The notes beneath the pieces are model-generated. The model did no database searches, was not told where the DNA came from, and worked only from the letters and a program-made list of their open reading frames with translations. The translations under genes were made by a program, and so were the position numbers. DNA of 64,000 nt from Candidatus Omnitrophota bacterium (GTDB lineage Bacteria; Omnitrophota; Gorgyraeia; Gygaellales; Profunditerraquicolaceae): contig JAQUPI010000003.1 in assembly GCA_028716705.1 (NCBI GenBank), positions 7,737 to 71,736 on the forward strand, in the 5' to 3' direction. Below are positions 32,798-53,325 of this stretch, one piece after another. The first letter of the stretch is position 1, and each line of letters begins with the position of its first letter.

Positions 32798-32848
32798 AAT
32801 TGGTTTTAAAAATAGGATTAATTAACAAATTTAGAGGAGGTGAGAAGG

Positions 32849-33392: not shown

Positions 33393-34916
33393 ATGTTGAG
33401 AAAATTCAGGCTAAAGCTGGTTTACGGTTTCATATTCAGCCTCTTTATTCATGCCTTTTCTTTTGCCATGGCGAAAGAAATCAACATCCCCAGCCAGTTC
33501 GGTAGCACAAAAGAAATATTCCAGCCCGCGAATCCCGGCCCTTCCGCAGAACGCACCATCATCCATATACAGGACGCGCATTGTAATTATGAGGCCCAAA
33601 AAAACATGGCCCAGCTCTTAGATTATTTGGCCAAAGATGACAATCTTAAACTGATCATGGTCGAAGGCGGTAGCGGGGACGTCAGCTTGCGGTTTTTAAG
33701 GGGCTACGCGGATAAGAAGGCCAGAGAACAGGTCGCGGAAAAATACCTTAAGGCGGGAAAGATCTCCGGCGAAGAGTATTTGGATATCGTTTCCGATCAC
33801 GCTATAGAGCTTTACGGGATAGAGGATGAAGGCTTGTATGAAGCGCATTTGGCGAGTTTCCAAAAAGTGGATTCTTTCAGGCAGAAGGCGCTGCAAGATT
33901 TAGGGGCCTTAGCAGGCATAGTAAATGGGCTCAAATCCAGGATATATCCGGAAGATCTGCGGCGTTTAGACGAACAAAAAAGCAGTTATGAGGGGCAAAA
34001 GACCGCGTTAGCCGAATATTGCCGCTTCCTTAATAATACAGCCGCAAAAAAGAGGATCGGCCTTGGCGCTTACCCGCACCTGGGCGCCTTTTCAGAGACT
34101 GCCCGCCTGGAAAAAGAACTGGACCTTAGGCAAGCGGAAGCCCAGCGCAACGCTTTCATCAAGGATCTGGCCAAGCTTTTAAACGAAAGAGAGGCGCAGA
34201 ACCTTATCCTTATGACCCAGGGTTTTAAGGCAAAAATGATCACTCCTGAGAAATATTATTCTTTTTTGTTGGACACCGCCACCGAACAAAAGATCAACCT
34301 GAGCCGCAGGTACCCTGAGCTTGGCGCTTATATCAGGTACGTGACCACAAGCGGGAATGTAGACGCGGCCGAGCTTTTAAAGGAAGTAAACGCGGCAGAA
34401 GAGAAGATAAAAGACGCTTCATTGAGCAGCCCTGAACAGAAGAAATTATCCGAGATTGACAAATCCCTCCATATCTTGACCAAAATACTGAACTTGGAAT
34501 TGACCCCTGAAGATTACGCGTATTTCAAAGAAAACACGCGCCGGTTCATGACTGCCGGTTGGATAGGTTTTTTAAATGAAGAGTGCGACAAATATAATTT
34601 TTCCACCCGGCCTTTTTTTGTCAAGGCCATCGATGAAAACCTGAAGGAGCTTGACGGATTTTACCGGTTGGGAGTAGCAAGGGAAGAGGCCTTTATCAAT
34701 AATTTGGCGGCCAAGCTCGACGATTCAAAAGAAAAGACCGCGGCGCTCATTACCGGCGGGTTCCACACGCCGGGCATTACCCGCAATTTAAAGAACCGCG
34801 GTTATTCTTATATAGTAGTCACCCCGGTGATCACGCAGAAAAGCGAACCGGACCTTTATTTTTCCGTGCTAAGAAGCGAGAAAAGACAGCCCGTAAGGGT
34901 TTCCGATGAAGAATAG
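33393..34916 (+). CDS. Exported hypothetical protein (507 aa) with an N-terminal signal peptide; possible ChaN/EreA/Tiki-superfamily fold
   Basis: RBS GGAG. Hydrophobic N-terminus 'LVYGFIFSLFIHAFSFAMA'. The 'TIIHIQDAHCNYEAQKNMAQLLDYLAKDDNLKLIMVEGG' pattern is reminiscent of the ChaN/EreA N-terminal block (weak). The stop overlaps the next gene by 11 nt. Confidence 0.7.
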   Translation: MLRKFRLKLVYGFIFSLFIHAFSFAMAKEINIPSQFGSTKEIFQPANPGPSAERTIIHIQDAHCNYEAQKNMAQLLDYLAKDDNLKLIMVEGGSGDVSLRFLRGYADKKAREQVAEKYLKAGKISGEEYLDIVSDHAIELYGIEDEGLYEAHLASFQKVDSFRQKALQDLGALAGIVNGLKSRIYPEDLRRLDEQKSSYEGQKTALAEYCRFLNNTAAKKRIGLGAYPHLGAFSETARLEKELDLRQAEAQRNAFIKDLAKLLNEREAQNLILMTQGFKAKMITPEKYYSFLLDTATEQKINLSRRYPELGAYIRYVTTSGNVDAAELLKEVNAAEEKIKDASLSSPEQKKLSEIDKSLHILTKILNLELTPEDYAYFKENTRRFMTAGWIGFLNEECDKYNFSTRPFFVKAIDENLKELDGFYRLGVAREEAFINNLAAKLDDSKEKTAALITGGFHTPGITRNLKNRGYSYIVVTPVITQKSEPDLYFSVLRSEKRQPVRVSDEE

Positions 34917-37900
34917 ATTAAATAGAAAACAATTAAAAAGGAGAATGAAAATGAACGCAGGGAATTTCCACAAGAGTTTATTGGCCAGGATAATGAGCCT
35001 TATCATTATCGTAAATTTCATTATTACCACCGGCCCTGTGAGCCTTTACGCGCAGGACATGTTGAAGGCGCCGTCAGCGGTCCAGAAAAATGACAGTCCT
35101 GTCCAGAATTTGATCGACGATCTCAGGGCGACGCAGGCAGGCCGTGAAATAGCCGCCTTTAAACGGATCGGCATACTCACCAGCGGCGGCCCGGCTTCCG
35201 GACATAACGCGGCCATTTACGCGGCAGTCGAAAAAATGAAAGAGCAGGGCATAGAGGCAGTGGCGATCCTGGACGGTTTTGACGGATTATACGAGGAGAA
35301 ATTAGTCAGCCAGGCACGGCCCCTTAGCCTGGAAGAGGCAAGGTCCCAGCGCAATAAAGGCGGGACAATGCTCGGTACTGACCGCATGAACCCCTTTGAG
35401 GCTAAAAATGTCGCAAACGGAGTTCCGCAGGCGATCTGGACGAATATCCAGAAGCTGAAACTGGACGGCTTGATCGTTCTCGGAGGCAACGACAGCCAGA
35501 GCACGTCTTATAAATTACAACAAGAGCATCCGGATTTCCCGATCATAGGCCTGGCTAAGACTATGGATAATGATCTGGCTTTACCTGAATTGGATGCTTT
35601 AACCTACGGTTTTGATACTTTTGTCAGGGAAACCACAAGGGCCCTGATAAAAATGATCCGCGATTGCCGCTCTATGAGAAGGATCGGGGTGGTTGAGGTA
35701 TTCGGCAGGAGCGCGGGGCATGTAGCGTTGCACGCCGGAGCCAATGTCAGGGCAAGCCGTACACTTTTACCCGAGGAAGGCAACCTTGATCTAGAGCAAC
35801 TGGTGAGCGACCTTAGAGAGAGCAAAAATAATGATAAATACAGAGCAGCCTTGTTAGTAGTTTCAGAAGGCATAAGTATAAGCAAGGATTACAAGAATAA
35901 CGCAGGCATATTGGAAAAAGCTTTTGCCGAAGACGAAGTGGCCAAGGCGGCTTTTGAAAAGGCGGTTAAGGGCGCCAAAAAAGATTCCTTCGGTAATCCT
36001 AAACTGGAGAATACCGGGAAAATCATCGCCGCGGTCTTGCGCTCGCAGGGTTTAGCCGTGAGCGAAGACCAGGTTAAATACATCGCGCGTTCGGCCAACC
36101 CTTCAAAGTTAGATATCGCCATGACAGAGCTTATAGGCCGCGCGGCGGTAGAAAATCTTTTGCAGGGAAACCATGGCCGCATTTTATACGCCTATAACAA
36201 TCAAGCCAGGTCTATCCCGTTCGCCTCGGACGTGGGGGGCAGAGTAGCGGACCTGACAGGGCATAAGCAGCTGTATTTAAGGGCGAACCAGGCCTTTGAT
36301 ATTAAGGTATCGGATAAGCCGGCTCTGAATTTTGCGAATACGGCTGAAGTCAATAGCGCGATAGCCGGCATATTGGCTGTCAGCGACAAGGCTGTCAGCG
36401 TGCTTGATGAAGAACGCCTGAGGAGCCAGCTTATTGATAACCTGGTTTATGACGCTACATTCGGCAGCGATAAGGAAGTAGTTAAGCTTTGCCGCCGGCT
36501 CATTAAAGACACCGCAGCCGCCCAAGGCGCGGTGCTCGGTTCTGTTTATGAGCTTTACAGGGCGAAAGCGAAAGATAAAAAACAATATACAGTCCCGGCG
36601 ATAAATATCAGGGGCATGGGTTACAATACCAGCAGGGCGGTATTCGCCTCAGCCATAGATAACAATGCCGATAAGTTCATCTTCGAGATCGCAAGGAGCG
36701 AGATAGGTTATACGGCTCAGCGGCCGGCGGAACTAGTTACCTCCGTTTTAGCGGCGGCGATCAAGGAAGGCTATAACCTGCCTGTATACCTGCAAGGCGA
36801 TCATTTTCAGGTTACGCTTAAGGACTATACGGCAAGCCCGGAAAAAGCAAAAGATTATATTAAAGGGTTGATCCGCGAGGCGATAGAAGCGGGCTTCTAT
36901 CAGGTAGACCTGGATATGTCACAACTAGTGGATTATACCAAGGCCGATGTTCAAGAGCAGCAGGAACTGAACTACAAATTAGTGGCTGAACTTACCGCTT
37001 ACGTGAGGGATTTGGAAAGGGAATTAGGTTTAGACAGAGCGGGTATCGTTGTTAATTTGGGCGGTGAAATAGGAGAGATCGGCAAGGGCTTAGCCGAAAA
37101 GGACCAGAAGAACAGCACCGTCGCGGAATTAAGGGCGTTTATGGACGGTTACAACGCTGAATTAAAGCGCCTCAGCCAGGAAAAAGGATACGAGCTGAAC
37201 CCTATCACAAAAATCGCGATCCAGACCGGCACTCAGCATGGCGGCATCAGAAACGCCAAAGGTGAATTGGTCAGGGCCAAGGTTAGTTTTAACGCCATTG
37301 CCGAACTCGGTAAAGTAGCCAGGGAAGAATACAGCCTGGCGGGCGTAGTGCAGCATGGCGCGTCCACCCTTCCCGAAGATAATTTTACGCTTTTCGCGGG
37401 CAACACCCCGGAAGGCCTGGTTATTGATGAAAGCCTTTTGAATGAGGCTTCTAAAAATATATTGAGCACCAACCCCGCCGCCGAAGTGCATCTGGCTACG
37501 GCTTATCAAGACACGATCATCGATCATCCCAGGATGCCCGCTTCTATGGTTTCCCAAATGAGGGAATACATTTTCAGCAAAAATCCGGTTAAGGAAAACC
37601 AGAACGCGGACGGAGTCTTTGTTTCCAACCGCAAAAATGTTTGGGGCCCGTTCAAGGCCCAGGTATGGAACCTGCCTGCTGGCGTGCAAGAAGCTATGCG
37701 CGACAGCCTGCGCGGACAATTCGACGTGGTCTTTAACAATATGGGGGTGAAGAATTCATCCCAGGCGCTTATCGCGCAAAAGGCCTCCGAAAAGGCAAAG
37801 CTTGTTAAAACAAGACTGGCTATAAATAACCCCGGTGGGCAAGAACGGGAGCTTATCAGGCTTTGGCTGGCAGGCAAATCCGCCGGTATCGACTTAGTCG

Positions 37901-40900
37901 GCGTAAACGGTATTTCTCCGGGCAGCCTGTATTATCTTTTAACCAAGGATTTCACCGCCTCCCCGGATGTCAGGGCATGGTTCACCGCTAATTTCACTTC
38001 GCTGCCGGAAGGCATAGGCGACAAAAACAAGAAACTCATTCTGCCTGTCACTGAAATTATCGACGCTAAGGACTTGCCTTGGAAGAAATTGAACCCGGAT
38101 GTCGTGCTTGAGGGTTCGGATCCGCAGCTGGCGGCCAGCCATAAGAGCCAGGGCGCGAAATCCGTCATTGTTGCCCACCCGGCTTTAACCGCGGTCAGCG
38201 CCTTAATGCCGGTCATTTCCGTCATGGGCGACCAGATCAAAGGCATCAATTTTACGGATATCCAGCCGCCTACGCCTTTACAGCGCGGCCTTGATAATTC
38301 CGGTCCGGACCCGGTATTGATGCGGGCCATGGGGATTAACCTCGTTCCTTCATTAAGAAAGGACATAGACAAATATGTGCAGGCATTATGCCCCGCGGAT
38401 CTAGCCGCGCATATAAAGGGCGCGATCAATTTTGCGCCTCAGGCGTTAGGTTCATTGCTGGACGTTCATATAGTCGTAAATAAAGATACTGACGCCGCGG
38501 CTATAAATAAACTGTTCAAGGCCGCGATCGAAGGCGTTTTAAAAGGCAAGGTATCTTACTCGCAGGATTCCTCTCTGGTATCCGTGGATACTTACCAGCA
38601 GCCGCAGCTTATCTTCTTGGCCAACAACACGAAGGTTACCGGGAAGAGGATCGTGCATTTACAATTCATGCACAATGAGGAGGCGACCTTTGCCGCGACG
38701 CAAGTACCTTTATTACTGCAGGCGCTGAAGGAGGGAAAAGCCCCCTCGATTATTACATCCAAAGATACTCAAACTATCTCCGCGGACGCTCAGGTAGTCT
38801 TGGATATCATCCAGGCAGAGCAGTCTAAGATGGCCAGGCCCGCGTTCCTGGGTACCAACCTGGCTTTTATTCCCGCTCTCGACGGCAACGTCAAGCCGCG
38901 TATCGTAGTTCGCGGCAAGGCCGTTAGTCCCGCGATCGTAGGTATAAACGGTCCCGGAAGAGTGGGCAGGCCTTCGACCTGGGCAATGCAGGGGGACCCG
39001 AATGTCGACCTGAGGATGATCAACGGTTCTTCCAGCGCTTTGATCCTGTCATGGTTATTGTCCGAAGATTCCGTGCAGCAGTCAATATCAAAGCCGGTCA
39101 CAAGAATAGTAATAACCCCCGCGCAGTTAAAGAGGGAAGTTTCCTCTCTGCTGGGCAGCTACAGTATCGAGCAGGTAAACGGATTCTTGACCGGCCTGCT
39201 TAGCTCTCAAAGATTATACCTGCTTAAAGAAAAAGAAGAATTCGTTCCTTACATCAAAAACCTCCTGGCCTCTTGGGGCAAGCCCAGTAATGAGCTTGAT
39301 TCCGCGGCCAATTGGTTGCTGAAGAGCCTGGTAGGCGTTTTAGATATTAACGGTAAAAAAGTCCTGGTAGTTAACGAGAGAAAAGCGATCACGGAACTTC
39401 CCTGGGACGTAGCAGGCATAAAGACGATCATGGAGTGTACCGGGGATCTGAAGAACGCTGACGAAGCCAGGCAGCATCTGGCGCATATTTCCGGAGGCAA
39501 GGTGATCATATCCGCTCCGGCCGAAGGAGCAGGCCAGTCTATCGTCTTGGGCGTAGTAGAGCCCAGCCGCGCTGCTCAGATCGTGGATAATGCCAGCTGC
39601 ACCACCAACTGTTTAATGCCTATGGTCGCGGTTTTGAATAAGGCATTCGGCGTGCTCATGCAGGAGATCACCACTGTCCATGCTTATACCACCGACCAGA
39701 CTTACGCCAGACAGGCAACACATAAAAAGGAAGCTACCCGCGGGAGGGACGCAAGGACGAACAGCCTTCCCGGTTCTACCGGAGCTGCCAAAACCGCCGC
39801 CGTTATATATCCGGACCTTGCCGGAAGGTCCGACGGTTGGGCAGTGCGCACGCCTCACGTCACCGGTTCTGCCGTAGCCCTGACCGCTACACTTAAGGGC
39901 AATGTGACCAAAGAACAGATACAGGCGGCGTTTAAGAGCGCCAGCGAAAAGGAAATGGCCGGGATCATGGCTTATACCCAGGCCCCGATCGTTTCTTCAA
40001 TGATCATCGGCAACCCGGCTTCCAGCATCATTGACGGTAATGCCATTGAAATCATCAGCTACGACGAAGAACTTGACCAGACCACAGCCGGTATTACCTC
40101 CTGGTATGACAATGAATATGGTTTCTCAAACCGTATGGTGAACCTTGCCGTAGCCCTGCAAGGCTTCTCTTTGATCAAAGGGAAAGCCCTGGCAGACATA
40201 GGCCCCAAAACCGTCGAGTTATTTGAAAACAAAATAAAAGAGATCTCTCCTGCCACGGTAGTCTGGAACGGGCCGATGGGCGTAGTGGAAGTTGCGGCTA
40301 CGAGCAAGGGTACTGACGGAGTGGCCATGGCGATCACCGCCTTAGGCGATAAAGTAGTTAAGGTTGTGGGAGGGGGGGATACCTTAAAGACGCTTTCGGA
40401 AGAAGAACGCGAGAAATTCACGCACGTCTCAACCGGCGGCGGCGCCTTCCTGGAGGCATTTCAATTCGGCGTGGATAATCTCCCGGGGATTAAGGCCCTG
40501 ATCGATCCTTCCACGGGCAAGATGGCGACGATGGACGGGCTCCTGCCGGTTTTGAAAGAGGGAGATACCGTCTTGATACGAGTTGACTTCAACGTGCCTT
40601 TGGATTCGCAATTAAAAGTAACAGATAGCACCAGGATCAAAGAAACAATGGTTACCATAAGGCCGTTGTTAGAGAAAAAGGCCAAGGTCATCCTGATGAG
40701 CCATTTAGGCCGGCCTAACGGGAAATTCGACGCTAAGCTTACCATGAACCCGGTGGCTTATGAACTGCAGAAACTCTTGCTAAAAACCAAAGTACATAAA
40801 TTGGATGACTGCGTGGGTAAGCCCGTGCAGGATTTTATCCAGAATACGGTAAAGCCCGGTGAAGTCGTAATGCTGGAGAATACCCGTTTTCGGTTAGACG

Positions 40901-42408
40901 AAGAACAGAATGCCTCTGGTTTTTCAAAGGATTTAAGCCAGCTGGCCACATATTACATTGATGACGCCTTTGGCACCGCGCACCGCGCGCATGCTTCGAA
41001 CGGCGGCATTACCTCAAATTACGCCTGGGGCAAGAAGTTCGCTGGCAGGCTTCTGGAGAAAGAAGAGCAGTATCTGAAACAGGTCTGCGAGAGTCCCAAG
41101 GAGCCCATGGTCGTAGTTTTGGGCGGAGGCAAGGTCAGCGATAAGATACATATCATCAATACCTTGAAACAGAAAGCGTCTGCTTTCCTGATCGGCGGAA
41201 GGATGTCTTTGGCATTCTTGGCAGCTCAGGGTCAGCAAGTCGGTGATTCCACGCCCGATAAACTTGACGTGGATACCGCCAAACGTTTCCTCGCCGATCC
41301 GCAGTTAAAAGGCAAGATCATTCTGCCGCAGGATAACATGGTGGTTACCGATATCTCTACGGGCGCGGACGCGACAGTTGTAGAAGGCAGTGTTGAGCCT
41401 TCGGATATGAGCGCGTTCCAGGAACAATTCCTGGCTTACCTTAAGTCTTATGTTGCTCTTGAAAGCGCGGAAGGAAAAGCGCTCGCTGCCGTCCAGAAAG
41501 CTGAAACCGAAGCCAGGCGGCTTATAGGTCTTCCCACCGCGCCAGAAGCTGCTCCTACTGTAACTCAGGCGGCAGTCGATCCCGCTCAATTAAGGTTCGG
41601 CGAGGCGAATGGTTTCCTTACTCCTGAGTCGCAGGCCAGAAACAAACCGGATTTCCAATATACCATGGGTTTTGGGGATGCCGCTAATTCCTACAGACCA
41701 GCCTCTGATTTAAGCCCGGCACTGCTGGTTCCCGAAGGCACCGTGTATACGGGAACTTCCGTGCTTTTCGGTAATTTCGCAAATGCCGTTAAGAATCGTG
41801 ATATAGCCGAAAGGGACGGCGCTGTCGTCATAGGGGCGAACGTGATATTGGAGAACGCGGGCTCTTTGACCAGCCTGAAGGCATTCAAGGATACAGGAAA
41901 AATCGTTGTTTATGCGCAAGACACTTCAACCCTGGAAGTTTTAAAAGCCATGGGGATAGATTCGGTAACGAAAAATATCATAAACGGGGAAACAAAAGGC
42001 GTCTCGATCGAGAATATCGCCATAGAATACAGCATGTCGGGCGAGACCGTCCTGGTTACCGCTCCCGTGGATCGTAAAGATATCAACTTAGGCAACATTC
42101 AAAAGGCTGGTGTCCGGATGTTGAATCTGGAGACGCCCAAAACTGAAGTAGGCAAGATAAACAGCATGCCGCTGGTTATCGCCAGGGCATTTGCCAGGAT
42201 TTACCAGGAAGACGCGAATGTGCCCAGGCAATTTAACACCTTAAGCAACAATTACGCAACGAAGAACCAGGTATTGGCGACAGATATCGAGAAGCTTAAC
42301 AACCTGGCTTCCCAGATCTGCGACGTGCCTTTAGTGCAGTTGAATATGGAGCAGGATAAAGAGATAATCGCGGCCCAGATGGCTTACCAGGCGGCCGTAA
42401 GCATATAA
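34906..42408 (+). CDS. 2500-aa fusion protein: N-terminal signal/anchor, then phosphofructokinase, class II fructose-bisphosphate aldolase, a ~400-aa unknown module, GAPDH, a circularly permuted phosphoglycerate kinase, and a conserved C-terminal domain
   Basis: Single stop-free frame. All four enzyme families are recognisable by their hallmark motifs in series (see sub-features). The start overlaps the upstream gene, which implies translational coupling. Confidence 0.9.
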   Translation: MKNRLNRKQLKRRMKMNAGNFHKSLLARIMSLIIIVNFIITTGPVSLYAQDMLKAPSAVQKNDSPVQNLIDDLRATQAGREIAAFKRIGILTSGGPASGHNAAIYAAVEKMKEQGIEAVAILDGFDGLYEEKLVSQARPLSLEEARSQRNKGGTMLGTDRMNPFEAKNVANGVPQAIWTNIQKLKLDGLIVLGGNDSQSTSYKLQQEHPDFPIIGLAKTMDNDLALPELDALTYGFDTFVRETTRALIKMIRDCRSMRRIGVVEVFGRSAGHVALHAGANVRASRTLLPEEGNLDLEQLVSDLRESKNNDKYRAALLVVSEGISISKDYKNNAGILEKAFAEDEVAKAAFEKAVKGAKKDSFGNPKLENTGKIIAAVLRSQGLAVSEDQVKYIARSANPSKLDIAMTELIGRAAVENLLQGNHGRILYAYNNQARSIPFASDVGGRVADLTGHKQLYLRANQAFDIKVSDKPALNFANTAEVNSAIAGILAVSDKAVSVLDEERLRSQLIDNLVYDATFGSDKEVVKLCRRLIKDTAAAQGAVLGSVYELYRAKAKDKKQYTVPAINIRGMGYNTSRAVFASAIDNNADKFIFEIARSEIGYTAQRPAELVTSVLAAAIKEGYNLPVYLQGDHFQVTLKDYTASPEKAKDYIKGLIREAIEAGFYQVDLDMSQLVDYTKADVQEQQELNYKLVAELTAYVRDLERELGLDRAGIVVNLGGEIGEIGKGLAEKDQKNSTVAELRAFMDGYNAELKRLSQEKGYELNPITKIAIQTGTQHGGIRNAKGELVRAKVSFNAIAELGKVAREEYSLAGVVQHGASTLPEDNFTLFAGNTPEGLVIDESLLNEASKNILSTNPAAEVHLATAYQDTIIDHPRMPASMVSQMREYIFSKNPVKENQNADGVFVSNRKNVWGPFKAQVWNLPAGVQEAMRDSLRGQFDVVFNNMGVKNSSQALIAQKASEKAKLVKTRLAINNPGGQERELIRLWLAGKSAGIDLVGVNGISPGSLYYLLTKDFTASPDVRAWFTANFTSLPEGIGDKNKKLILPVTEIIDAKDLPWKKLNPDVVLEGSDPQLAASHKSQGAKSVIVAHPALTAVSALMPVISVMGDQIKGINFTDIQPPTPLQRGLDNSGPDPVLMRAMGINLVPSLRKDIDKYVQALCPADLAAHIKGAINFAPQALGSLLDVHIVVNKDTDAAAINKLFKAAIEGVLKGKVSYSQDSSLVSVDTYQQPQLIFLANNTKVTGKRIVHLQFMHNEEATFAATQVPLLLQALKEGKAPSIITSKDTQTISADAQVVLDIIQAEQSKMARPAFLGTNLAFIPALDGNVKPRIVVRGKAVSPAIVGINGPGRVGRPSTWAMQGDPNVDLRMINGSSSALILSWLLSEDSVQQSISKPVTRIVITPAQLKREVSSLLGSYSIEQVNGFLTGLLSSQRLYLLKEKEEFVPYIKNLLASWGKPSNELDSAANWLLKSLVGVLDINGKKVLVVNERKAITELPWDVAGIKTIMECTGDLKNADEARQHLAHISGGKVIISAPAEGAGQSIVLGVVEPSRAAQIVDNASCTTNCLMPMVAVLNKAFGVLMQEITTVHAYTTDQTYARQATHKKEATRGRDARTNSLPGSTGAAKTAAVIYPDLAGRSDGWAVRTPHVTGSAVALTATLKGNVTKEQIQAAFKSASEKEMAGIMAYTQAPIVSSMIIGNPASSIIDGNAIEIISYDEELDQTTAGITSWYDNEYGFSNRMVNLAVALQGFSLIKGKALADIGPKTVELFENKIKEISPATVVWNGPMGVVEVAATSKGTDGVAMAITALGDKVVKVVGGGDTLKTLSEEEREKFTHVSTGGGAFLEAFQFGVDNLPGIKALIDPSTGKMATMDGLLPVLKEGDTVLIRVDFNVPLDSQLKVTDSTRIKETMVTIRPLLEKKAKVILMSHLGRPNGKFDAKLTMNPVAYELQKLLLKTKVHKLDDCVGKPVQDFIQNTVKPGEVVMLENTRFRLDEEQNASGFSKDLSQLATYYIDDAFGTAHRAHASNGGITSNYAWGKKFAGRLLEKEEQYLKQVCESPKEPMVVVLGGGKVSDKIHIINTLKQKASAFLIGGRMSLAFLAAQGQQVGDSTPDKLDVDTAKRFLADPQLKGKIILPQDNMVVTDISTGADATVVEGSVEPSDMSAFQEQFLAYLKSYVALESAEGKALAAVQKAETEARRLIGLPTAPEAAPTVTQAAVDPAQLRFGEANGFLTPESQARNKPDFQYTMGFGDAANSYRPASDLSPALLVPEGTVYTGTSVLFGNFANAVKNRDIAERDGAVVIGANVILENAGSLTSLKAFKDTGKIVVYAQDTSTLEVLKAMGIDSVTKNIINGETKGVSIENIAIEYSMSGETVLVTAPVDRKDINLGNIQKAGVRMLNLETPKTEVGKINSMPLVIARAFARIYQEDANVPRQFNTLSNNYATKNQVLATDIEKLNNLASQICDVPLVQLNMEQDKEIIAAQMAYQAAVSI
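35160..36235 (+). other. pfk: Domain: 6-phosphofructokinase (PFK-A family; residues suggest a PPi-dependent type)
   Basis: 'RIGILTSGGPASGHNAAI', 'LIVLGGNDSQST', 'GLAKTMDNDLALPELDALTYGFDT' and 'EVFGRSAGHVALHAG'. The D in GGNDS and the K in AKTMDND correspond to the Asp/Lys pair typical of PPi-PFKs. Confidence 0.8.
36580..37650 (+). other. fba: Domain: class II (metal-dependent) fructose/tagatose-bisphosphate aldolase
   Basis: 'YTVPAINIRGMGYNT', 'LPVYLQGDHFQV', 'YQVDLDMS', 'IQTGTQHGG' and 'VVQHGASTLPED' correspond to class II FBA blocks. Confidence 0.65.
38895..40160 (+). other. gap: Domain: glyceraldehyde-3-phosphate dehydrogenase
   Basis: 'IVGINGPGRVGR', 'GGKVIISAP', 'IVDNASCTTNCLMP', 'TVHAYTTDQ', 'SLPGSTGAAK' and 'WYDNEYGFSNRMVNL'. 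Confidence 0.9.
40190..40510 (+). other. pgk: Domain: the last ~105 residues of PGK (nucleotide-binding half), placed upstream of the PGK N-domain
   Basis: 'DIGPKTVELF', 'VVWNGPMGVVEV', 'VVGGGDTL', 'HVSTGGGAFLE' and 'LPGIKAL' are normally the C-terminal blocks of PGK. Confidence 0.85.
40565..41395 (+). other. pgk: Domain: PGK N-terminal (3-phosphoglycerate-binding) domain through the hinge and the first part of the C-domain
   Basis: 'LIRVDFNVPL', 'ILMSHLGRPNG', 'VMLENTRF', 'YIDDAFGTAHRAHAS', 'VVLGGGKVSDKIHIINTL' and 'FLIGGRMSLAFLAAQG'. Confidence 0.9.
41740..42405 (+). other. Conserved ~222-aa C-terminal domain of unknown function, shared with the next ORF
   Basis: 'VYTGTS..GNFA', 'GxNVILENAG.xTSL', 'VVYAQD', 'KINSMPL.I.RAF' and 'LNNLASQ.CDVPLV.L' align colinearly with 47470-48138. 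Confidence 0.8.
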
Positions 42409-42453: not shown

Positions 42454-45400
42454 ATGCGGCCTTTGAAGCCCGGCTCATTACGCAAAATCATTATATTCCT
42501 TACCCTTGTCAGTTTCATTGCGTCTTTCGCGCCGGCTCAACTCTACGCGCAGATCCTTTCCGATACGCTCAGGACATCTTCGGCCAGGGCTACTGCCGTA
42601 AAGGATGAGATCGCCGTTGATCTGCTTAGAAGCGGCAAGCTTCCCTATGTGGTCACCTACGCAGACCCGCGCTCCGAAAGGAAAGAGACTGCCGGGGGAA
42701 AGTGCGCGCAGCTGGCCTGGGCATATAACCGGGGGATCCCCAATCCTCTGGGTTTTAGCATAACCGTGGAAGCGGTGAGGGAGTATTACAGGTACAATCC
42801 CAAACTCATAGAGATGATCAAAGATGCGCGTAACCTTGACATAAACGATGCCAAGAAACGCGCGGAGACAGCTTTACGGATACAGAATTTTATGATGAAG
42901 GAAACGAAGCTCCCTCCGGCCGTTTTTAAGGCGGTAAGCGATGACCTCGTGATGATGAGCAGGGTCTTGGGTTATGAAGAGGACGAGATGGTCCCGGTCG
43001 CCTACCGGGGAAGCGGCGTTATCGAAGACTTTGAAGGAGCCATACCCTGGTTCAAGAAAACGATCGGAGCCCAGCCGGGGCAAGGCACCACGCTGCTCAA
43101 CAAGCGCGGTTTTACCGATATTGAGCCATCGGTGATCGAAGTTATCGCCGGCTTGTTCAATGACCAGATATTCGTCTACCGCGATGTCCAGATCTTTTTT
43201 GATTTTGTGAGCAAGATGCGGGATGTCTCAGAGTATAACAAATTGATCCTTTGGGCGAAGAAATACGGTTTTAACGTTGCGGCCAGCAGGCTGGAGAATG
43301 AAAATTCACCCGGCTATGTCAACCTGCGCAAGATGATCGAGGAGATCGAGGCAAAGGAGCCGGGGGCGAAAGAGCAATATAAATGGGGTGATAAACTTGA
43401 GAAATCGGCAAACGATATCCTGGAGCCCATGAATTTTGTTACCGGCATTGCCGTGCTGGAAATGGCGGATAGTTTATTTTCCGGAACCGCATTCACTTCA
43501 CACCTGGGAACCGGATTCGACGGCTCAACATTCGCCAAGAAAACAAAAGGTCTTTTCCCGAAGAAGAGAGGGGATAAGTTCGATGGTTATACCCGCTATG
43601 TAAAAATAAATTTAGGCACAGGGTTAGGGCCCGGCATTGTAGAAGGAAAATTCCAGCCGAATATCGTAACCTTCTTTGATATTACCGGCCAGGGCAAATG
43701 GGTGCCTACCGAATTTTCAGTGGGCAAGAAACACATGAGTTTGATATATATAGATAAGGTTATCGATTCTTTAGCACCAAAATTCGCAAGGGAACAGATC
43801 TACCTCTTTGCCCAGTTATACGCGGATTGGCAAAACCCGATCAAGCAGCAGGGGGTCCGGGTCGCCCTTAAAACGGAGTTCAATATCGAAGCGGAAAGCT
43901 GGATACGGGCGATGATGGACCTGTGGTATTTTTATGATAAACCCGATAAACATAAAGCCACCGCCCAGGAAAAAGCGGTTTTATTGAAGGAACTCAACGT
44001 AAACGAAAATGAATTCTTTACCTTAAGCCATTTAGTCAAACATATCAATAAGGTCGCGACCAGTTATGATACGGCCTCTTATATGCTTACTTCCCCGGAA
44101 CTCGCGTCGAGCAGGCTTTTAAGCGATGAAGGTTACAAGAAACTCGCGGACATGATCGCTAAAGTCGGCAATCTTATGGCCCAGGAGCGGTTTGAGGCCG
44201 CCGACAAGGGCTGGCGCGAGCGCAGGGATATCGAGTTTTCGGTTGTCCGCTGCAACGAAAACGACACAAGTAAATATAAGGTAAAACTGGAACATATTTA
44301 TGACCTGGTAACCGGCAATGACCTGGGGGAGGGCTGGGTAAAGATACTGCATATCCAGAACCGGCCGATCAATCCGGAAAAAGAGATACAGGACCCGGAT
44401 AACATAATTTTCAAGAAGATGAAGGTCGACGAAGATTTTGTGGACGGCCAGGGTATTTTGCCTATCGCGAAAAACGGGCTGGTTGGCTATGGAGCGGCTG
44501 AAGGCATGCTTTATTTTGTCGATCCTTACAACGACCTGGCTGAGCAAGAAGAAGAAGTCGCGAAGATGAAAGACCAGGGAAAGAGCGTGATCGTGGTCCT
44601 GGAAGAAATGGGCCCTGAGCATGATCCTATAGTAGAAAAAGCGGGCGCCGCGATCGTGTGGAGGGGTAATGACACCAGCCACGCTTATATATTCAGCCTG
44701 GAATTAAAGATCCCCATCGTTATAAACGCGGCTACGCAGCCAGGGTTCGAAGGATATCTTAAGGACCGCATGAACGCGGTTATTGACGGCTCAGGGGGAA
44801 TGATCTATCCCGGAGATAAAGAGATCCCTCTGCTTCCGGACAATCTGATCATACGCGTAGACATGCTTCCGGAGACGAAAGTCGGGATGATCGTTTCCAC
44901 GCTGCAAAGCGCGCAGGAGGTAGCGCGGTTAGGAGCGAAGAGTGTCCTTACCCGTATGGAATTTTTGATCAATAATGTAGTCAAAATATACCCGCAGGCG
45001 GGTTGGGCCTATGACCTGATGACCAAGCTGGATAACGGGCAGATAAGCGAGTCCGGCCTTACTCCCGAAGAGCTGAAAGACGTAGCGGCATTAAGGCAGC
45101 ATCCGGAGATAATAGAAGAGATCAGAAAGATGATCACAAGCTTTCCGTCGGCAACTGAATTCATGGCTGAAAAGATGCGTTATGCCGGCAACGCGCTTGG
45201 TTCTATCTTTCCTATACTTAATGAAATGCGCGCCTACGATAATAAGGAAAAAGAAGCGCTTCTTTACGGGCTTATCGGCGCCAAACTTTATCTGCGTTAT
45301 GACGATAAAAATCCTGAATTCGATTCCCCGTTGGTCGGCATGCGCGGCTCAGCGTTAATGAGCCATCCGCATCTAAAGAAGGGATTTCAGGCTTTAAACA

Positions 45401-48141
45401 GGGGCGTCATCCGCTCGGTGAAAGACGGGTTTAAAAACAATGCCTTTTTCTTCGTTTATCTGAGGAATACCCATGAGCTGAAAACGCAGCTTGCAGACTT
45501 CGAGAGACTATGCCAGGAGGAAGGGGCCTATCCTGAAGAGATCGGCACCATGATCGAACTGGGAGGCAATCTCTGGATGATAAAAGAGGTCAGCCAGATA
45601 TTTTCCGATTTTGTGGCAAAACATAAAAAAGACGGCGTTAAGCGGTGGTATATTTCTTTCGGGACCAATGACCTTACCAATTCGCTCGGCAAGACCTCGA
45701 GGGACGATAAAGACTTTACCGGGGAGCTAAAGGTGCTGCAACCGGCGTTGATCAACGCGGATCCAGCTGAGGCAAAGATTGAAGTTGTCCCTGGCGCGGT
45801 TTACGGGCCCAAAGAATACGGCCAGCCTTTTACCGTCACTCTTAACGATGAGGCGGCTCCGGGGGTAATACGCTTTATAGAAAATGCCACCGCGGTTGTC
45901 AGAAATATGGGCGGCCATGTATATTTGTGCGGACAGGCGGTGAGCAAGGCCATCAACAAGGGGGATGTGCAGACCGGGATGAAACTTTTATCTGTATTGG
46001 ACGCGGTCGGCACGCAGAGTATTACCTTTGTATCCGGGGCAATGCTTGATTTTGATACCCGGGTTTCGCTTACCCGGATATCGAAAGACGCCTTATCCGA
46101 CAAGACGCCCGCCGCTAAATTATCCGACATTAAAAAAGAGGCGGAAAACGCGGTTTTGATTTCAGAGTCTGTGGTAGTGGAAAAACCGCAGGATATACTT
46201 AAGCTCCGTGAAGGGCAGAATAAACAGAAGATAGTGATAATGAAAACAACCTGGGAGCGCAAAGACCTGGAAGATATGGGTATCCCGTGGGATTACCTTA
46301 ATTACGCCGGAGCTATCCTGTTGTCTAACGGGGTAAAACCCGGGACAGGCATCCTCGCGGAGCCGGGAGTAAAATCCAGGGTTAAGGCCAGGCTTATCGG
46401 GGGAGCGACCATCGTTTCCGGAGAACCGTTGACAATAGCATACGGCGAACAAGCTGTGTATAAAGGCGTCTATTCTACGTATGCCGAAGAGACCAGGGTC
46501 CCGCAGCTGCGTATGCCTAAAGAGGGGATGATCCCGGTGGCCAAACCCATAATACGCATAAGCGCGGGCGACCTCTTCGTGCGCCGGGGCGATAGCCCCG
46601 CGGCAATTGACATACATCCTTTGGCATTCGCGCTGTATAAAGCGAACCCCGACGCGGTCTCTCAAGAGACCCGCGCGGCGATCGTGGGGCTTATCGGCGG
46701 CGAAGATCCGTTAATTTACCTGCATGAACGTTTTGTCGAATATGTGGCGGCGAAGGCACAAGAGGCGGTCCAGAATAACCGGGTCCCGGTTTATACTCTT
46801 TTGCGGCTTACCCGTAACCAGTTGAGGGATCTTAAGGAGGGTGAGGCGATAGAAAAGACAAAGGGCAAAGAGGGGGTTAACTTTGACGACCCGCAGTGCC
46901 GCTTACAGGGAGGCGCCAGGGCACTTAATGATTTTTGGCAGATATTTAACACGGAAATAGCGGCGTTTAGGGAAGTAAAAACCGGATACCCGGCCATGGC
47001 GTTGCAATTGTCGGCAATGGGAACGCGTTCCCAGGAAGTAATAGAGATGCTGTTTCGCGCCCTCAAGCCCTTGGGCATAACCCCGCAGGATCAGGAGATA
47101 GGACTTGAACTTACTACGGCGCTTGACCCTTTGCAGGTAGAAGATTATATAAAGCAAGGCATTAAGTTTTTCAGTTATAATGACAGGGAATTGGCGGAAG
47201 CCCTTCTTTCTGTTAATTTGAACCACCCCGATATATTCTCCGTAGAAGGCAAAGAAGCGATGGTTAAACAGGCACTGGAAGCCCCCGTCGCTTACATAAA
47301 AGGCATTGTTGCGGAAAACGCCGATAGCGGCGTATGGGTAGGCTTAAACCCGCAGCAATCAGCAGTTGAAACCGCAGTTATCCCCGCGGCTCCCCTCGAG
47401 CCTTTGGTTACCGCGCCCGCGGAGCGTCTTAGGCGTGAGCTTGATGAAACAACCCTCTACACATCTGAGAGCGCGGTTTACACAGGCACTTCCGAGCGCT
47501 TGGGAAATTTTGCTGATTCAATAAAAGATTCAAAGCTTGAGAAAAATAGCGCGACAATAATCTTAGGCGGGAATGTAATACTTGAAAACGCGGGGGCAAT
47601 GACTTCCCTTATGAGATTTAAAGGGACCGGTAATTTAGTGGTCTATGCCCAGGATGGAGCAATATTAAATGCTTTGAAAGCCATGGGGGCGGATGAAGTT
47701 GTGAACGCCATAATAAGCCGGCAGGAGGTTCAACAGGATCTGGCTGAGCTTGCCTTTGATTATGCTAAAAAAGGGCCAACCGTTTTGATCACTTCTCCCC
47801 TGGACCGTAAGGGCGTGGATTTGACGAGTATTCCTTATGGAGTGCAATTAGTGAATCTTGATTCACCCAAGCCCGAAGAGGGGAAAATAAACAGCATGCC
47901 GCTGGCTATTTCCCGGGCATTTACCGCCATTTTGAAGAATGACCCGGCTGTGGTCAGTCAGTTCAATGCCCTAAGCCAGAATTACGCCGCTAAGGGTCGG
48001 ATATCCGGTAGAGATTTAGAGGCATTGAACAACCTGGCCTCGCAGGTTTGCGACGTACCGCTTGTAGAGTTAACTCAACAAAAAGACAGGGAAGTGATCG
48101 AGGCCCAGATAGCCTATCAAGCTACGGTAGGCCAGATTTAA
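42454..48141 (+). CDS. 1895-aa fusion protein: signal peptide, a pyruvate phosphate dikinase / PEP synthase-family enzyme (ATP-grasp N-domain, phosphohistidine domain, PEP-utilising TIM barrel), a ~480-aa unknown region, and the shared C-terminal domain
   Basis: RBS GGAGG. Signal 'IIIFLTLVSFIASFAPAQLYAQ'. Dikinase motifs 'AGGKCAQLA...GIPNPLGFSIT', 'VWRGNDTSHAYIFSLELKIPIV', 'WYISFGTNDLTNSLG' and 'VYLCGQA'. Confidence 0.85.
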   Translation: MRPLKPGSLRKIIIFLTLVSFIASFAPAQLYAQILSDTLRTSSARATAVKDEIAVDLLRSGKLPYVVTYADPRSERKETAGGKCAQLAWAYNRGIPNPLGFSITVEAVREYYRYNPKLIEMIKDARNLDINDAKKRAETALRIQNFMMKETKLPPAVFKAVSDDLVMMSRVLGYEEDEMVPVAYRGSGVIEDFEGAIPWFKKTIGAQPGQGTTLLNKRGFTDIEPSVIEVIAGLFNDQIFVYRDVQIFFDFVSKMRDVSEYNKLILWAKKYGFNVAASRLENENSPGYVNLRKMIEEIEAKEPGAKEQYKWGDKLEKSANDILEPMNFVTGIAVLEMADSLFSGTAFTSHLGTGFDGSTFAKKTKGLFPKKRGDKFDGYTRYVKINLGTGLGPGIVEGKFQPNIVTFFDITGQGKWVPTEFSVGKKHMSLIYIDKVIDSLAPKFAREQIYLFAQLYADWQNPIKQQGVRVALKTEFNIEAESWIRAMMDLWYFYDKPDKHKATAQEKAVLLKELNVNENEFFTLSHLVKHINKVATSYDTASYMLTSPELASSRLLSDEGYKKLADMIAKVGNLMAQERFEAADKGWRERRDIEFSVVRCNENDTSKYKVKLEHIYDLVTGNDLGEGWVKILHIQNRPINPEKEIQDPDNIIFKKMKVDEDFVDGQGILPIAKNGLVGYGAAEGMLYFVDPYNDLAEQEEEVAKMKDQGKSVIVVLEEMGPEHDPIVEKAGAAIVWRGNDTSHAYIFSLELKIPIVINAATQPGFEGYLKDRMNAVIDGSGGMIYPGDKEIPLLPDNLIIRVDMLPETKVGMIVSTLQSAQEVARLGAKSVLTRMEFLINNVVKIYPQAGWAYDLMTKLDNGQISESGLTPEELKDVAALRQHPEIIEEIRKMITSFPSATEFMAEKMRYAGNALGSIFPILNEMRAYDNKEKEALLYGLIGAKLYLRYDDKNPEFDSPLVGMRGSALMSHPHLKKGFQALNRGVIRSVKDGFKNNAFFFVYLRNTHELKTQLADFERLCQEEGAYPEEIGTMIELGGNLWMIKEVSQIFSDFVAKHKKDGVKRWYISFGTNDLTNSLGKTSRDDKDFTGELKVLQPALINADPAEAKIEVVPGAVYGPKEYGQPFTVTLNDEAAPGVIRFIENATAVVRNMGGHVYLCGQAVSKAINKGDVQTGMKLLSVLDAVGTQSITFVSGAMLDFDTRVSLTRISKDALSDKTPAAKLSDIKKEAENAVLISESVVVEKPQDILKLREGQNKQKIVIMKTTWERKDLEDMGIPWDYLNYAGAILLSNGVKPGTGILAEPGVKSRVKARLIGGATIVSGEPLTIAYGEQAVYKGVYSTYAEETRVPQLRMPKEGMIPVAKPIIRISAGDLFVRRGDSPAAIDIHPLAFALYKANPDAVSQETRAAIVGLIGGEDPLIYLHERFVEYVAAKAQEAVQNNRVPVYTLLRLTRNQLRDLKEGEAIEKTKGKEGVNFDDPQCRLQGGARALNDFWQIFNTEIAAFREVKTGYPAMALQLSAMGTRSQEVIEMLFRALKPLGITPQDQEIGLELTTALDPLQVEDYIKQGIKFFSYNDRELAEALLSVNLNHPDIFSVEGKEAMVKQALEAPVAYIKGIVAENADSGVWVGLNPQQSAVETAVIPAAPLEPLVTAPAERLRRELDETTLYTSESAVYTGTSERLGNFADSIKDSKLEKNSATIILGGNVILENAGAMTSLMRFKGTGNLVVYAQDGAILNALKAMGADEVVNAIISRQEVQQDLAELAFDYAKKGPTVLITSPLDRKGVDLTSIPYGVQLVNLDSPKPEEGKINSMPLAISRAFTAILKNDPAVVSQFNALSQNYAAKGRISGRDLEALNNLASQVCDVPLVELTQQKDREVIEAQIAYQATVGQI
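44640..44730 (+). other. Phosphohistidine (PEP-utilising mobile) domain motif
   Basis: 'GNDTSHAYIFSLELKIPIV' parallels 'GGRTSHAAIIARELGIPAVVG'. Confidence 0.8.
47470..48138 (+). other. Second copy of the shared ~222-aa C-terminal domain (paralogous to 41740-42405)
   Basis: See 41740-42405. Confidence 0.8.
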
Positions 48142-48299: not shown

Positions 48300-48629
48300 A
48301 TGGACGACCGTAGGGTTTTTGAGCGCATCGGCACGAAGCTGCCCGTCAGATTCTTAGACCCCATAAGCGGCAAAGAAGGTACCGCGGATACAACTGATAT
48401 CAGCGCCAACGGCCTTGGTATGGTGACCAATGAGAGCTTAAGAACCATGACTCCTTTAGAGATGTGGCTGGGAATCCCCGATAAACACGAGCCCCTTTAT
48501 ACGCGAGGCCAGGTAGTCTGGTCAGAATCCCTCCCCAGTTCCGGAGAATACCGCATCGGCATACGGCTGGAAAAAGCAGAATTAATGGGCTTAGCCAGGG
48601 TGTTATGGCTTAAGAGGCGCGCAGGTTAA
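48300..48629 (+). CDS. Single-domain PilZ protein, a paralog of the one at 32849-33178
   Basis: RBS AAGGAGG. Motifs 'RRVFER' and 'DISANG'. The sequence is colinear with the first PilZ, including the shared C-terminal 'EKAELMG.ARVL'. Confidence 0.8.
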   Translation: MDDRRVFERIGTKLPVRFLDPISGKEGTADTTDISANGLGMVTNESLRTMTPLEMWLGIPDKHEPLYTRGQVVWSESLPSSGEYRIGIRLEKAELMGLARVLWLKRRAG

Positions 48630-48680: not shown

Positions 48681-49970
48681 ATGCGTAAATTCCCCGTATT
48701 TTATATTCTTTTTCTTTTAATTTTTGCCGGATGCTCCGGCGCGAACAAAGGGTCCAAGCCGTCTGTGACCGTCTGGCATTGGATGACCGACCGCGATCCC
48801 GCCTTCCAGGAATTAGCCAAAAAATACGAAACTGACACAGGAATAAAAATAAATTTTGAGTTATACGCGCCATCCGACGCTTATTCCCAGAAAGTCCGCG
48901 CCGCGGCTCAAGGGCAGAACCTCCCGGATATTTACGGGATACTAGGCGAAAAGAGGGACTTTTCTTCCTTTGTGAAGGCGGGGCATGTCCTGGAACTGAC
49001 GCCGTACATGGAAGAATCGGGCGCGGCATGGAAAAACGCCTTGTTCGCGAAGGCGCTGGCCATAAATGAATTTCGCGAAGGGAACAGTTATGGCGTCAAG
49101 CCCGGTATTTACGGCGTGCCTATAGATACCATGACCATCCAGATGCTCTACAACAAGGATCTATTCAGGCAGTTAGGCCTTGATCCCGATAGCCCTCCGA
49201 AAACTTTCCAGGAATTTTTAGATATCGGTAAAAAGATCAAACAGGCTAATCTTCAGGGATTGGTTTCCGGATGGGACGAGACCTGGATAATTGACAGCCT
49301 GGCCAGTAATTATGCCTTCAATATCATGGGCGAAGGTAAGGTCATGGCAACCATAAGGGGAGAAGTGCCGTATACCGATCCGGATTGGATAAGGGTGTTG
49401 GCCATTTTTAAAGAGATGCAGGATTCCGGCGTATTGGCGAACGGCCTGGTAACCATGATAAACAAGACCGCGGAACAGCTTTTTGCCAACGGAAGAGCGG
49501 TTTTTGCCTTTAATGGTTCCTGGTGCGTCAATGTCTATAAGGGCATGAACCCGGACCTGAACTATGGGGCCATGATTCCGCCGTCCGCCGGCGATAAGTA
49601 TCCGATGACCATATGGGGAGGGGCAGGTTCTTCTTTTATGGTCAACCTCCGTTCAAAGAACATGGAAGAGGCGGTGAAATTCTTAAGGTGGCTGACGGAT
49701 AAGGACCAGCAAGTTTATCTTGCCCAGTCCACAAATAACCTTCCGGCAAATAAAGAAAGTTTAAGCAAATTATCCCCGTTGTTATCCCAGTTTGCCTATG
49801 TTATGGAGCATACGACGCATCCAAGCGCCTGGGGTATCTCGGAATTCCCTCAGGTAATCGAGGCTATCGATAAAGGCATTCAATCCATAATAATCGGGGA
49901 GAAGTCTCCCGAGCAGGTCGCCCAAGAAGTACAGAGGATGAAAGAGCGTGAATCAGCCAGAAAACGTTAG
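48681..49970 (+). CDS. Sugar ABC transporter substrate-binding lipoprotein (family 1 SBP)
   Basis: Lipobox 'LIFAGCSG'. Size and sequence are typical of MalE/UgpB-like SBPs. It is followed by two permease genes. Confidence 0.75.
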   Translation: MRKFPVFYILFLLIFAGCSGANKGSKPSVTVWHWMTDRDPAFQELAKKYETDTGIKINFELYAPSDAYSQKVRAAAQGQNLPDIYGILGEKRDFSSFVKAGHVLELTPYMEESGAAWKNALFAKALAINEFREGNSYGVKPGIYGVPIDTMTIQMLYNKDLFRQLGLDPDSPPKTFQEFLDIGKKIKQANLQGLVSGWDETWIIDSLASNYAFNIMGEGKVMATIRGEVPYTDPDWIRVLAIFKEMQDSGVLANGLVTMINKTAEQLFANGRAVFAFNGSWCVNVYKGMNPDLNYGAMIPPSAGDKYPMTIWGGAGSSFMVNLRSKNMEEAVKFLRWLTDKDQQVYLAQSTNNLPANKESLSKLSPLLSQFAYVMEHTTHPSAWGISEFPQVIEAIDKGIQSIIIGEKSPEQVAQEVQRMKERESARKR

Positions 49971-49973
49971 ACG

Positions 49974-50852: not shown

Positions 50853-50857
50853 AAGAG

Positions 50858-51706: not shown

Positions 51707-51711
51707 AAAAA

Positions 51712-51743
51712 TTGTTTAATGTGGAAGGTATATTTGTTATAAT
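51712..51743 (+). promoter_or_regulatory. Promoter with extended -10 (TGTTATAAT at 51735-51743) upstream of the MFS gene; an imperfect palindrome lies downstream (about 51764-51793)
   Basis: Consensus TATAAT with a TGn extension. 'CACCCAAACC...GGTTTGGTGTG' is a near-inverted repeat lying between the promoter and the RBS AAGGAG. Confidence 0.45.
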
Positions 51744-53319: not shown

Positions 53320-53325
53320 GGCTGG

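Follow-up and report, generated by a model that had tools for sequence, protein, structure and literature searches.

What is a domain without recognised relatives doing at the C-terminus of two neighbouring glycolytic fusion proteins? The question is raised by a stretch of 64,000 nucleotides (hereafter the window) from a Candidatus Omnitrophota bacterium (assembly GCA_028716705.1, contig JAQUPI010000003.1, positions 7,737 to 71,736 of the forward strand), in which one same-strand run of genes comprises a giant open reading frame (ORF), a small ORF, a 507-residue (507-aa) ORF, a 2500-aa ORF and an 1895-aa ORF. The products of the last two end in a common C-terminal domain (CTD), which, as judged by the searches described here, belongs to a new, Omnitrophota-restricted, C-terminal family.

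When the 2500-aa and 1895-aa products were compared by BLASTP, a single strong local match was found, between residues 2273–2498 and residues 1668–1892, respectively, with 115 of 226 residues identical (51%), one gap and an E-value of 3e-64; outside this pair, the comparison of the two large proteins gives only noise. An initial annotation of the window had described the last ~222 residues as homologous and colinear, with the caveat that the similarity might not be significant in a proper alignment. The alignment that it had asked for dispels this concern, and all of the motifs that it quoted (VYTGTS..GNFA, NVILENAG..TSL, VVYAQD, KINSMPL.I.RAF and LNNLASQ.CDVPLV) are present in colinear order. 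Of the coordinates given there, 41740–42405 and 47470–48138, the ends are correct and the starts lie too far downstream. The BLAST alignment begins at 41722 and 47455, approximately 15–18 nucleotides further upstream, and the AlphaFold model described below extends the domain by an N-terminal helix, placing the boundaries at approximately 41701–42405 (+ strand) for the first copy, the last ~235 aa of a PFK-FBA-GAPDH-PGK fusion, and at 47434–48138 (+ strand) for the second, the last ~235 aa of a PEP synthase/PPDK-like fusion. When the whole window was searched by tblastn with each copy, no third one was detected at E < 0.01. The CTD tail also shows a weak local similarity (E-values of 0.03–0.12) to a PGK segment of the same protein, which was judged to be due to chance.

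In a codon-based alignment, the two copies share 58% nucleotide identity, and third positions are identical at 45% of the identical residues. Given these values, the copies are old paralogues held similar by selection, with a recent duplication excluded. A functionally meaningless resemblance, arising from chance, low complexity or recent local duplication, is likewise refuted by the E-value of 3e-64, by 94 relatives that are under selection and by the near-saturation of synonymous sites between the copies, and the confident fold prediction also speaks against it. The domain matches no recognised family, as had been stated in the initial annotation. In Pfam, nothing was found at E ≤ 10 except Herpes_U44 (E-value of 0.053), which was judged meaningless; for the corresponding region of both proteins, NCBIfam searches returned no match and PDB sequence searches no significant match.

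To determine the extent of the family, 1.84 billion representative proteins (cluster representatives) were searched exhaustively with HMMER at E ≤ 0.001; this search returned 94 relatives, 35 of them with E-values below 1e-30. By comparison, a word-indexed protein search with 2-sequence and 46-sequence CTD alignments recovered one relative only, P0001, whose source name, 'Lrp family regulator', has no Pfam support. The named sources are all Candidatus Omnitrophota (five of the five representative clusters that were looked up and carry a source name), and a scan of a species-representative genome collection with the six closer sequences as query yielded two loci, both from the same phylum. The position of the domain is strict: it ends 0–7 aa from the C-terminus in 56 of 56 full-length matches and is present as a single copy per protein, whereas one partial match, P0045, has it internally. 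The longest CTD protein among the matches has 2543 aa. In the databases, these proteins are annotated by one of their enzyme domains or as hypothetical. Neither the CTD nor the leader motif and gene order described below were found to have been described in the literature searched, which included a 2026 preprint on the flanks of giant genes.

The domains that precede the CTD, hereafter its cargo, were tabulated by scanning with Pfam those 66 relatives that have 300 aa or more. PEP-utilizers_C was found 16 times, PPDK_N 12 times, GAPDH and PFK nine times each, PGK and class II FBA six times each (with three additional GatZ-like matches), cupin-type GPI five times, enolase four times and TIM three times. 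An F420_oxidored-like domain occurs six times, and glpX FBPase, aldose 1-epimerase, UDPGP and DHH occur in one case each. The cargo is thus almost purely glycolytic or gluconeogenic and covers nearly every glycolytic step. Embden-Meyerhof glycolysis is known from the literature to be generally present in Omnitrophota. To our knowledge, a single terminal module shared by the enzymes of an entire central pathway has not been reported before from any bacterium.

The CTD was modelled with AlphaFold from the 46-sequence alignment (pLDDT of 95.5 and pTM of 0.92); an earlier run with three sequences (pLDDT of 57.8) was left out of the fold comparison. The model comprises a helical hairpin (residues 4–31), five β-α units (strands 41–45, 67–72, 92–95, 116–120 and 139–142) and a helical C-terminal subdomain (residues 156–234) with a small β element. 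Its central part is a Rossmannoid three-layer α/β core with HAD topology. The common regulatory folds that had been raised as a possible counter-explanation, ACT and CBS, are represented neither among the Pfam matches nor in the model. A structure search with Foldseek, also suggested in the initial annotation, returned no significant match in the PDB (best E-value of 1.4e-3, TM-score ≤ 0.35, generic Rossmann matches), and a profile search of PDB sequences was likewise without a significant match, four of the eight sub-threshold matches being HAD proteins. In these HAD matches, the CTD pattern 'NAG-tiaaLkklKe..kvvvwAkd...LkamGv..vadii' is aligned with the canonical HAD pattern 'PG..e.L..LK..g.k.vvTn...L..lGl..yFD.iv'.

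HAD enzymes are recognised by four motifs: motif I is a DxD at the end of strand 1, motif II a Ser or Thr at the end of strand 2, motif III a Lys, and motif IV an acidic pair (GDxxxD or DD). In the 46-sequence CTD alignment, from which all column statistics were taken, the position of the motif I nucleophile, G45, is occupied by Gly (63%), Ser (15%) or Thr (9%), with Asp outside the top three, and the +2 position, N47, by Asn (57%), Asp (15%) or Glu (11%). Position 72, which aligns to the Thr of 'FFTNN' in NagD and corresponds to motif II, is Ala in 78% of the sequences, Ser in 9% and Thr in 7%. No motif III Lys of the 'KP' type was recognised in the CTD sequence. Beyond strand 4 lies an N-S-x-x-D motif, in which S121 (74%) and D/E124 (87%) are conserved, as read from a sequence alignment rather than a structure-based one. 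Since the fold is HAD-like and the catalytic residues of motifs I and II are lost, the CTD was assigned to the pseudo-enzymes; it is probably a capless HAD-like fold that lacks the defining catalytic motifs, and a pseudo-enzyme branch rather than an active HAD protein.

The most conserved residues of the CTD are A46, N52 (89%), W71, N154 (96%), L158, P210, E221, Q226 and Y229 (93%), and the domain ends in a conserved ...Y-E-E-T-V-x-K-I-COOH. Most of the polar residues among them follow strands S1, S2, S4 and S5, and we infer, from the alignment rather than from coordinates, that they mark the former active-site face and the interface to the C-terminal subdomain. The conservation of the polar residues N52, N154, Y229 and D/E124 could also speak for an enzyme with non-canonical chemistry on a HAD-like scaffold. 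The near-invariant set, however, consists of Ala, Asn, Leu, Pro and Tyr, with no conserved Asp nucleophile, Cys, His or Ser, and it is hard to conceive of one reaction that all glycolytic enzymes would require, which makes such an activity very improbable. A regulatory role is a further alternative, in which the dead HAD pocket of the CTD would still bind a phosphorylated metabolite, phosphate, pyrophosphate or a metal and tie the activity or the ligand-dependent oligomerisation of the tagged enzymes to one signal. We consider it unlikely: motifs I and II, which bind phosphate, have been lost, a Lys of motif III was not recognised in the sequence, and allosteric control at the near-equilibrium steps of TIM, GPI, enolase and PGK has no obvious rationale.

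The evolutionary behaviour of the domain bears on the same point. In both comparisons with an ortholog, the CTD diverges faster than the cargo to which it is attached: between the 1895-aa protein and P0048, identity is 57% overall but 27% in the CTD, and between the 2500-aa protein and P0022 it is 56% overall but 37% in the CTD. Such a rate would be unusual for a conserved metabolite pocket. In the window and in locus L007, the closest CTD pairs occur within one genome, with identities of 51% in the window and of 55% in L007, where identity to all others is 38% or less, whereas the intragenomic pairs of L005 (40%) and L008 (23%) are not the closest, so that the pattern holds in two of the four loci. 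Fast and sometimes genome-specific divergence is suggestive, although not proof, of co-evolution with a shared partner.

These features lead us to favour, if tentatively, an interpretation of the CTD as a non-catalytic interaction module that brings the enzymes of the pathway into a membrane-associated assembly. The CTD would mark Embden-Meyerhof enzymes and join the marked enzymes into one such assembly, either through CTD–CTD association or by binding a common partner. Candidates for such a partner are the ~500-aa protein encoded next to the fusions, the giant protein, and the conserved N-terminus that the tagged proteins themselves would have in their mature form. The interpretation rests on the occurrence of one CTD at the extreme C-terminus across nearly every step of the pathway, including near-equilibrium steps without regulatory need, on the loss of catalytic residues, on the fast and sometimes genome-specific divergence, and on the conservation of the gene cluster; a pathway-wide distribution is more readily explained by co-localisation than by catalysis or allostery at individual steps. 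Tim50 is an example of a dead HAD/FCP1-like domain that binds targeting peptides in the groove of the former active site, and by analogy the D-x-L-R-P N-terminus found on the same set of proteins would be a candidate ligand of the CTD. Protein binding by the CTD, the identity of the partner and the compartment are the parts of this picture that we infer. The initial annotation had described a sorting, docking or assembly module; that the CTD is a common, terminal and non-catalytic module is upheld by its single C-terminal copy, its many cargoes and the loss of catalytic residues, whereas sorting and docking or assembly are not distinguished by these data.

The D-x-L-R-P motif belongs to a leader that was surveyed in the 65 family members of at least 400 aa, together with the second window protein. 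An N-terminal hydrophobic segment is present in 46 members; the remaining 19 begin mid-domain and look 5'-truncated. A motif of the form [DNSHEG]-x-L-[RK], typically D/N-x-L-R-P-x-x-A, was found in 43 of the 46 N-terminally complete members, a few residues past a Pro- or Gly-containing stretch that ends in small residues such as SYA, AYS, LYAQ or AFA, and a DGG often follows 20–35 residues after it. DGG is also recurrent in the inter-domain linkers of several fusions (for example, P0036, P0047 and P0051). The two window fusions conform to this scheme, each having a basic start and a hydrophobic segment with LYAQ at its end. The leader of the 2500-aa protein (34906–35085, + strand) has a basic n-region and a hydrophobic segment, ...IIIVNFIITTGPVSLYAQ, followed by DMLKAPSA, a variant of the family motif D-x-L-R-P-x-x-A. 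The leader of the 1895-aa protein (42454–42600, + strand) reads ...FLTLVSFIASFAPAQLYAQ, followed by ILSDTLRTSSA. The arrangement reads as a signal peptide of the signal peptidase I type followed by a conserved mature N-terminus, and may combine a dedicated signal with a motif for sorting or processing or with a linker motif.

The leader is also found on a fusion that lacks the CTD. Fusions without a CTD are encoded at L006 426–4175, L010 11613–15887, L011 11571–14672 and L012 11535–14486; in L010–L012 this is the first fusion gene after the ~500-aa gene and is of the FBA or FBPase type, and the L006 fusion is similar. At their C-termini, the CTD-less fusions share a conserved tail of ~45 aa (..E-D/Q-L..L-D.L.S.D..G-N....Y....). 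It is similar to the final helices of the CTD (hhalign probability of 45%, P value of 2.2e-4), and this extreme C-terminal element may be functional on its own.

That such a tail stands alone on CTD-less fusions speaks for an alternative in which the CTD would be a sorting or secretion signal, recognised after leader-directed Sec export by dedicated machinery that attaches the enzymes to the cell surface or a 'coat'. In its logic, this would parallel the C-terminal domains of the type IX secretion system or sortase signals. The strict extreme C-terminal position with its conserved Y-E-E-T-V-x-K-I-COOH tail points in the same direction, as do the signal-peptide-like leader, with Pro or Gly and small residues ahead of D-x-L-R-P, and the occurrence of a signal-peptidase S26 domain in the large protein encoded upstream in L004. 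An extracellular location has, moreover, been predicted for glycolytic domains in giant proteins of Omnitrophota: the TIM, GPI, FBPase, FBA and PPDK domains inside the giant 'Archaeovorins' are predicted to be extracytoplasmic (10.1101/2023.11.21.568195). Known C-terminal sorting domains, however, are short β-sandwiches or peptides rather than α/β domains of 230 aa, and the CTD has no Pfam or NCBIfam match. The cargo needs ATP or ADP and NAD+ and keeps its catalytic motifs (SCTTNC in GAPDH and AYEPRWAIGTG in TIM), which points to a cytoplasmic site, and the giant protein has S-adenosylmethionine-dependent methyltransferase and helix-turn-helix (HTH) domains, as cytoplasmic proteins typically do. 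On balance, a sorting signal has a modest chance of being the correct explanation.

The two sets of observations amount to a conflict over the compartment: export is predicted from the leader, and a cytoplasmic location is suggested by the dependence of the cargo on ATP and NAD and by the methyltransferase and HTH domains in the giant. The description of the enzymes as exported in the initial annotation is a prediction from sequence that agrees with the signal-peptide-like N-termini of both proteins and is at odds with the cofactor needs of the cargo. The same conflict was noted by West-Roberts et al. for the glycolytic domains of the giant 'Archaeovorins' (10.1101/2023.11.21.568195).

The first of the two host proteins (34906–42408, + strand) consists of the leader, PFK, a class II aldolase-like region, GAPDH, an apparently permuted PGK and the CTD. 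Searches of Pfam, NCBIfam and PDB sequences place PFK at residues 87–417, GAPDH at residues ~1345–1750 and PGK at residues ~1762–2160. The aldolase-like region (residues ~600–730) has a weak GatZ_KbaZ-like match (E-value of 4.9e-4, under the Pfam curated cut-off) and is 56% identical to P0027, in which a PFK domain is followed by the same aldolase-like region. The database gene call for this protein (P0002) begins at Met16. The second protein (42454–48141, + strand) carries, after its leader, the PPDK_N, mobile and PEP-binding domains of the PEP synthase/PPDK type (residues 78–1099), then a stretch of ~570 residues that matches no family, and finally the CTD; its 57% identity to the ortholog P0048 extends over 1928 aa. 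Catalytic signatures that can be read in the sequence, such as SCTTNC (GAPDH) and TMDNDL (PFK), are intact.

Two further observations concern the domain architecture of the fusions. The PGK domain of the 2500-aa protein (~40189–41385, + strand) is apparently circularly permuted, the C-terminal ~100 residues (WNGPMG...GGGD...STGGGA) preceding the N-terminal domain; in the family member P0054 (L008 946–4338), Enolase_C is likewise found ahead of Enolase_N. Residues 1036–1220 of the 2500-aa protein (~38011–38565, + strand) are 24% identical (E-value of 8e-4) to part of the GAPDH region of the ortholog P0022. In view of this weak similarity, the segment may represent a second, degenerate domain of GAPDH type that precedes the active domain.

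The neighbourhood of the CTD genes is conserved. The order giant ORF, ~500-aa protein, glycolytic fusions was observed in seven of the seven loci examined, namely the window, a set of three found via CTD proteins (L004, L007 and L009) and a further three found only via the ~500-aa protein (L010, L011 and L012). Because the genes stand beside a giant ORF in all seven, a functional link to the giant protein is plausible. In the window, the giant ORF (2–32797, + strand) encodes at least 10,870 aa and is open at the 5' edge; as there is no in-frame stop before position 185, the protein is longer than this. The giant proteins of L007, L010, L011 and L012 have 18,064, 32,476, 31,973 and 6,624 aa, respectively. 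The domains recognised in the window giant include a DOT1-like methyltransferase near the start, iPGM (~nt 5699–7198), HEAT repeats, an HTH cluster (~21760–23560), PCMT and other methyltransferases (~27317–28900), tetratricopeptide repeats (TPRs; ~30935–31150) and a C-terminal VTT/DedA membrane domain (~31856–32212), with transmembrane-like segments at residues 2366, 2469, 2974, 8502 and 10506–10696. Owing to the iPGM domain, a further glycolytic step is located inside the giant protein, which is, by synteny, a candidate for the scaffold to which the initial annotation had proposed that both fusions might be tethered.

The ~500-aa protein (507 aa in the window; 33393–34916, + strand) is encoded between the giant ORF and the fusions and has a signal-like N-terminus of its own. 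Homologues with 45–55% identity occupy the same position in L004 (3226–4734), L007 (8208–9920), L009 (8446–9957), L010 (10001–11548), L011 (10001–11518) and L012 (10001–11494). The family comprises at least 346 clusters, with 45–66% identity among the 120 listed; its named members are all Omnitrophota, and no Pfam family was matched. The motifs H-I-Q-D-A-H-C-N and I-T-G-G-F-H-T-P-G hint at a metal site. A relationship to TraB/Tiki/ChaN-like proteins, considered on account of the H-x-Q-D-A-H and G-G-F-H motifs, found no support in Pfam at E ≤ 1 or in a PDB sequence search. The protein is a candidate partner or processing factor of the fusions.

A bolder proposal would combine these elements, with the leader, the D-x-L-R-P motif and the dead-HAD CTD forming a dedicated Omnitrophota system that exports a complete and catalytically competent glycolysis across the cytoplasmic membrane, as a tethered array on or beside the giant 'Archaeovorin'-type protein, and the ~500-aa protein serving as receptor or processing factor. 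We give it only a small chance of being correct. If true, the array would amount to a glycolytic metabolon outside the cytoplasm of an ultra-small bacterium that lives as a predator or epibiont. Omnitrophota are ultra-small, possibly predatory bacteria with cells of ~0.2 µm, and their giant genes are the largest known.

Small PilZ-domain proteins accompany the cluster. The first (32840–33178, + strand) matches NCBIfam TIGR02266, and PF07238 on the identical gene of L002, and has homologues in L004 and L009; the second (48300–48629, + strand) directly follows the second CTD protein and has a 58% identical homologue downstream of the CTD protein in L004. Between them, the two PilZ genes enclose the gene for the 507-aa protein and both CTD genes. 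In other Omnitrophota, too, PilZ genes are found at this cluster (L004 ~10912–11247 and L009 8019–8363), and they were seen in three of the seven loci; through PilZ, the cluster may be linked to cyclic di-GMP signalling. L004 stems from the Omnitrophota single-amplified genome AM-311-M22; here the gene ahead of that for the ~500-aa protein (48–2942, + strand) encodes a large protein in which a CheR-type methyltransferase is joined to a signal-peptidase S26 domain, of note given the signal-peptide-like leaders encoded nearby. Downstream of the CTD genes in the window (48681–63103, + strand) lie genes for two sugar transporters, one of the ABC type (a substrate-binding protein and two permeases) and one of the MFS type, as well as for two TPR-containing TIM-barrel proteins that are GH2/GH72-like, an HTH-containing member of the ROK family and a coiled-coil protein; sugar uptake and hydrolysis by these products would fit a supply to the adjacent glycolytic fusions.

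If the CTD is an assembly tag, it offers a handle on the organisation of energy metabolism in Omnitrophota, on the function of the giant proteins and on the puzzle of extracytoplasmic glycolysis. The CTD profile and the ~500-aa protein can also be used as markers for annotating the cluster in Omnitrophota genomes.

By its probable fold, the CTD family extends the HAD superfamily by a new branch of pseudo-enzymes. Compared with the capless C0 HAD protein magnesium-dependent phosphatase-1 (PDB entry 1u7o), the motif I Asp and the +2 Asp are missing (Gly, Ser or Thr, and Asn, in their place) and motif II is Ala. The CTD furthermore adds to the C0 fold an N-terminal helical hairpin and a C-terminal helical subdomain of ~80 aa, the latter holding its most conserved motifs, IN[SA]MPL, PLV and Y-E-E-T. 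Sequence identity to HAD proteins is 7–17%, with no significant sequence or Foldseek match. The presequence receptor Tim50 (PDB entry 4qqf) and SCP1/FCP1 (PDB entry 1t9z) show no sequence relationship to the CTD and are not among the top structural matches.

In its distribution, the CTD resembles the dockerin–cohesin system of cellulosomes, in which a common terminal module is carried by varied enzymes of one process and these are assembled on a large scaffold encoded nearby. Dockerins are Ca-binding modules of ~70 aa. The CTD is unrelated to them in fold and size and has no PF00404 match, no cohesin-like receptor is known here, and the cargo consists of normally cytoplasmic glycolytic enzymes rather than extracellular glycoside hydrolases. 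The C-terminal domains of the type IX secretion system (TIGR04183, Por_Secre_tail) are β-sandwiches of 80–100 aa, whereas the CTD is an α/β domain of ~230 aa without an NCBIfam match. In the PGK-TIM fusion of Thermotoga (PRK13962), a domain of ~230–250 aa follows PGK, as it does in the 2500-aa protein, and the PGK part matches the model. The match is, however, confined to positions 12–293 of the 645 in the model, that is, to the PGK part, and the CTD was rejected as a TIM domain, having no PF00121 match and not being a TIM barrel; it also trails PPDK, enolase, GPI and genuine TIM domains (P0003 and P0005).

A parallel in setting is provided by the glycolytic domains of the 'Archaeovorins' (10.1101/2023.11.21.568195), which belong to the same phylum and pose the same compartment puzzle, and the giant ORF of the window holds an iPGM domain; those domains, however, lie inside the giants themselves, whereas the CTD proteins do not exceed 2543 aa. 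Set beside these systems, the CTD is a new domain family of a known fold type, perhaps with a known kind of role, that of a terminal module shared by the enzymes of a pathway, in a setting not seen before, that of bacterial glycolysis beside giant genes.

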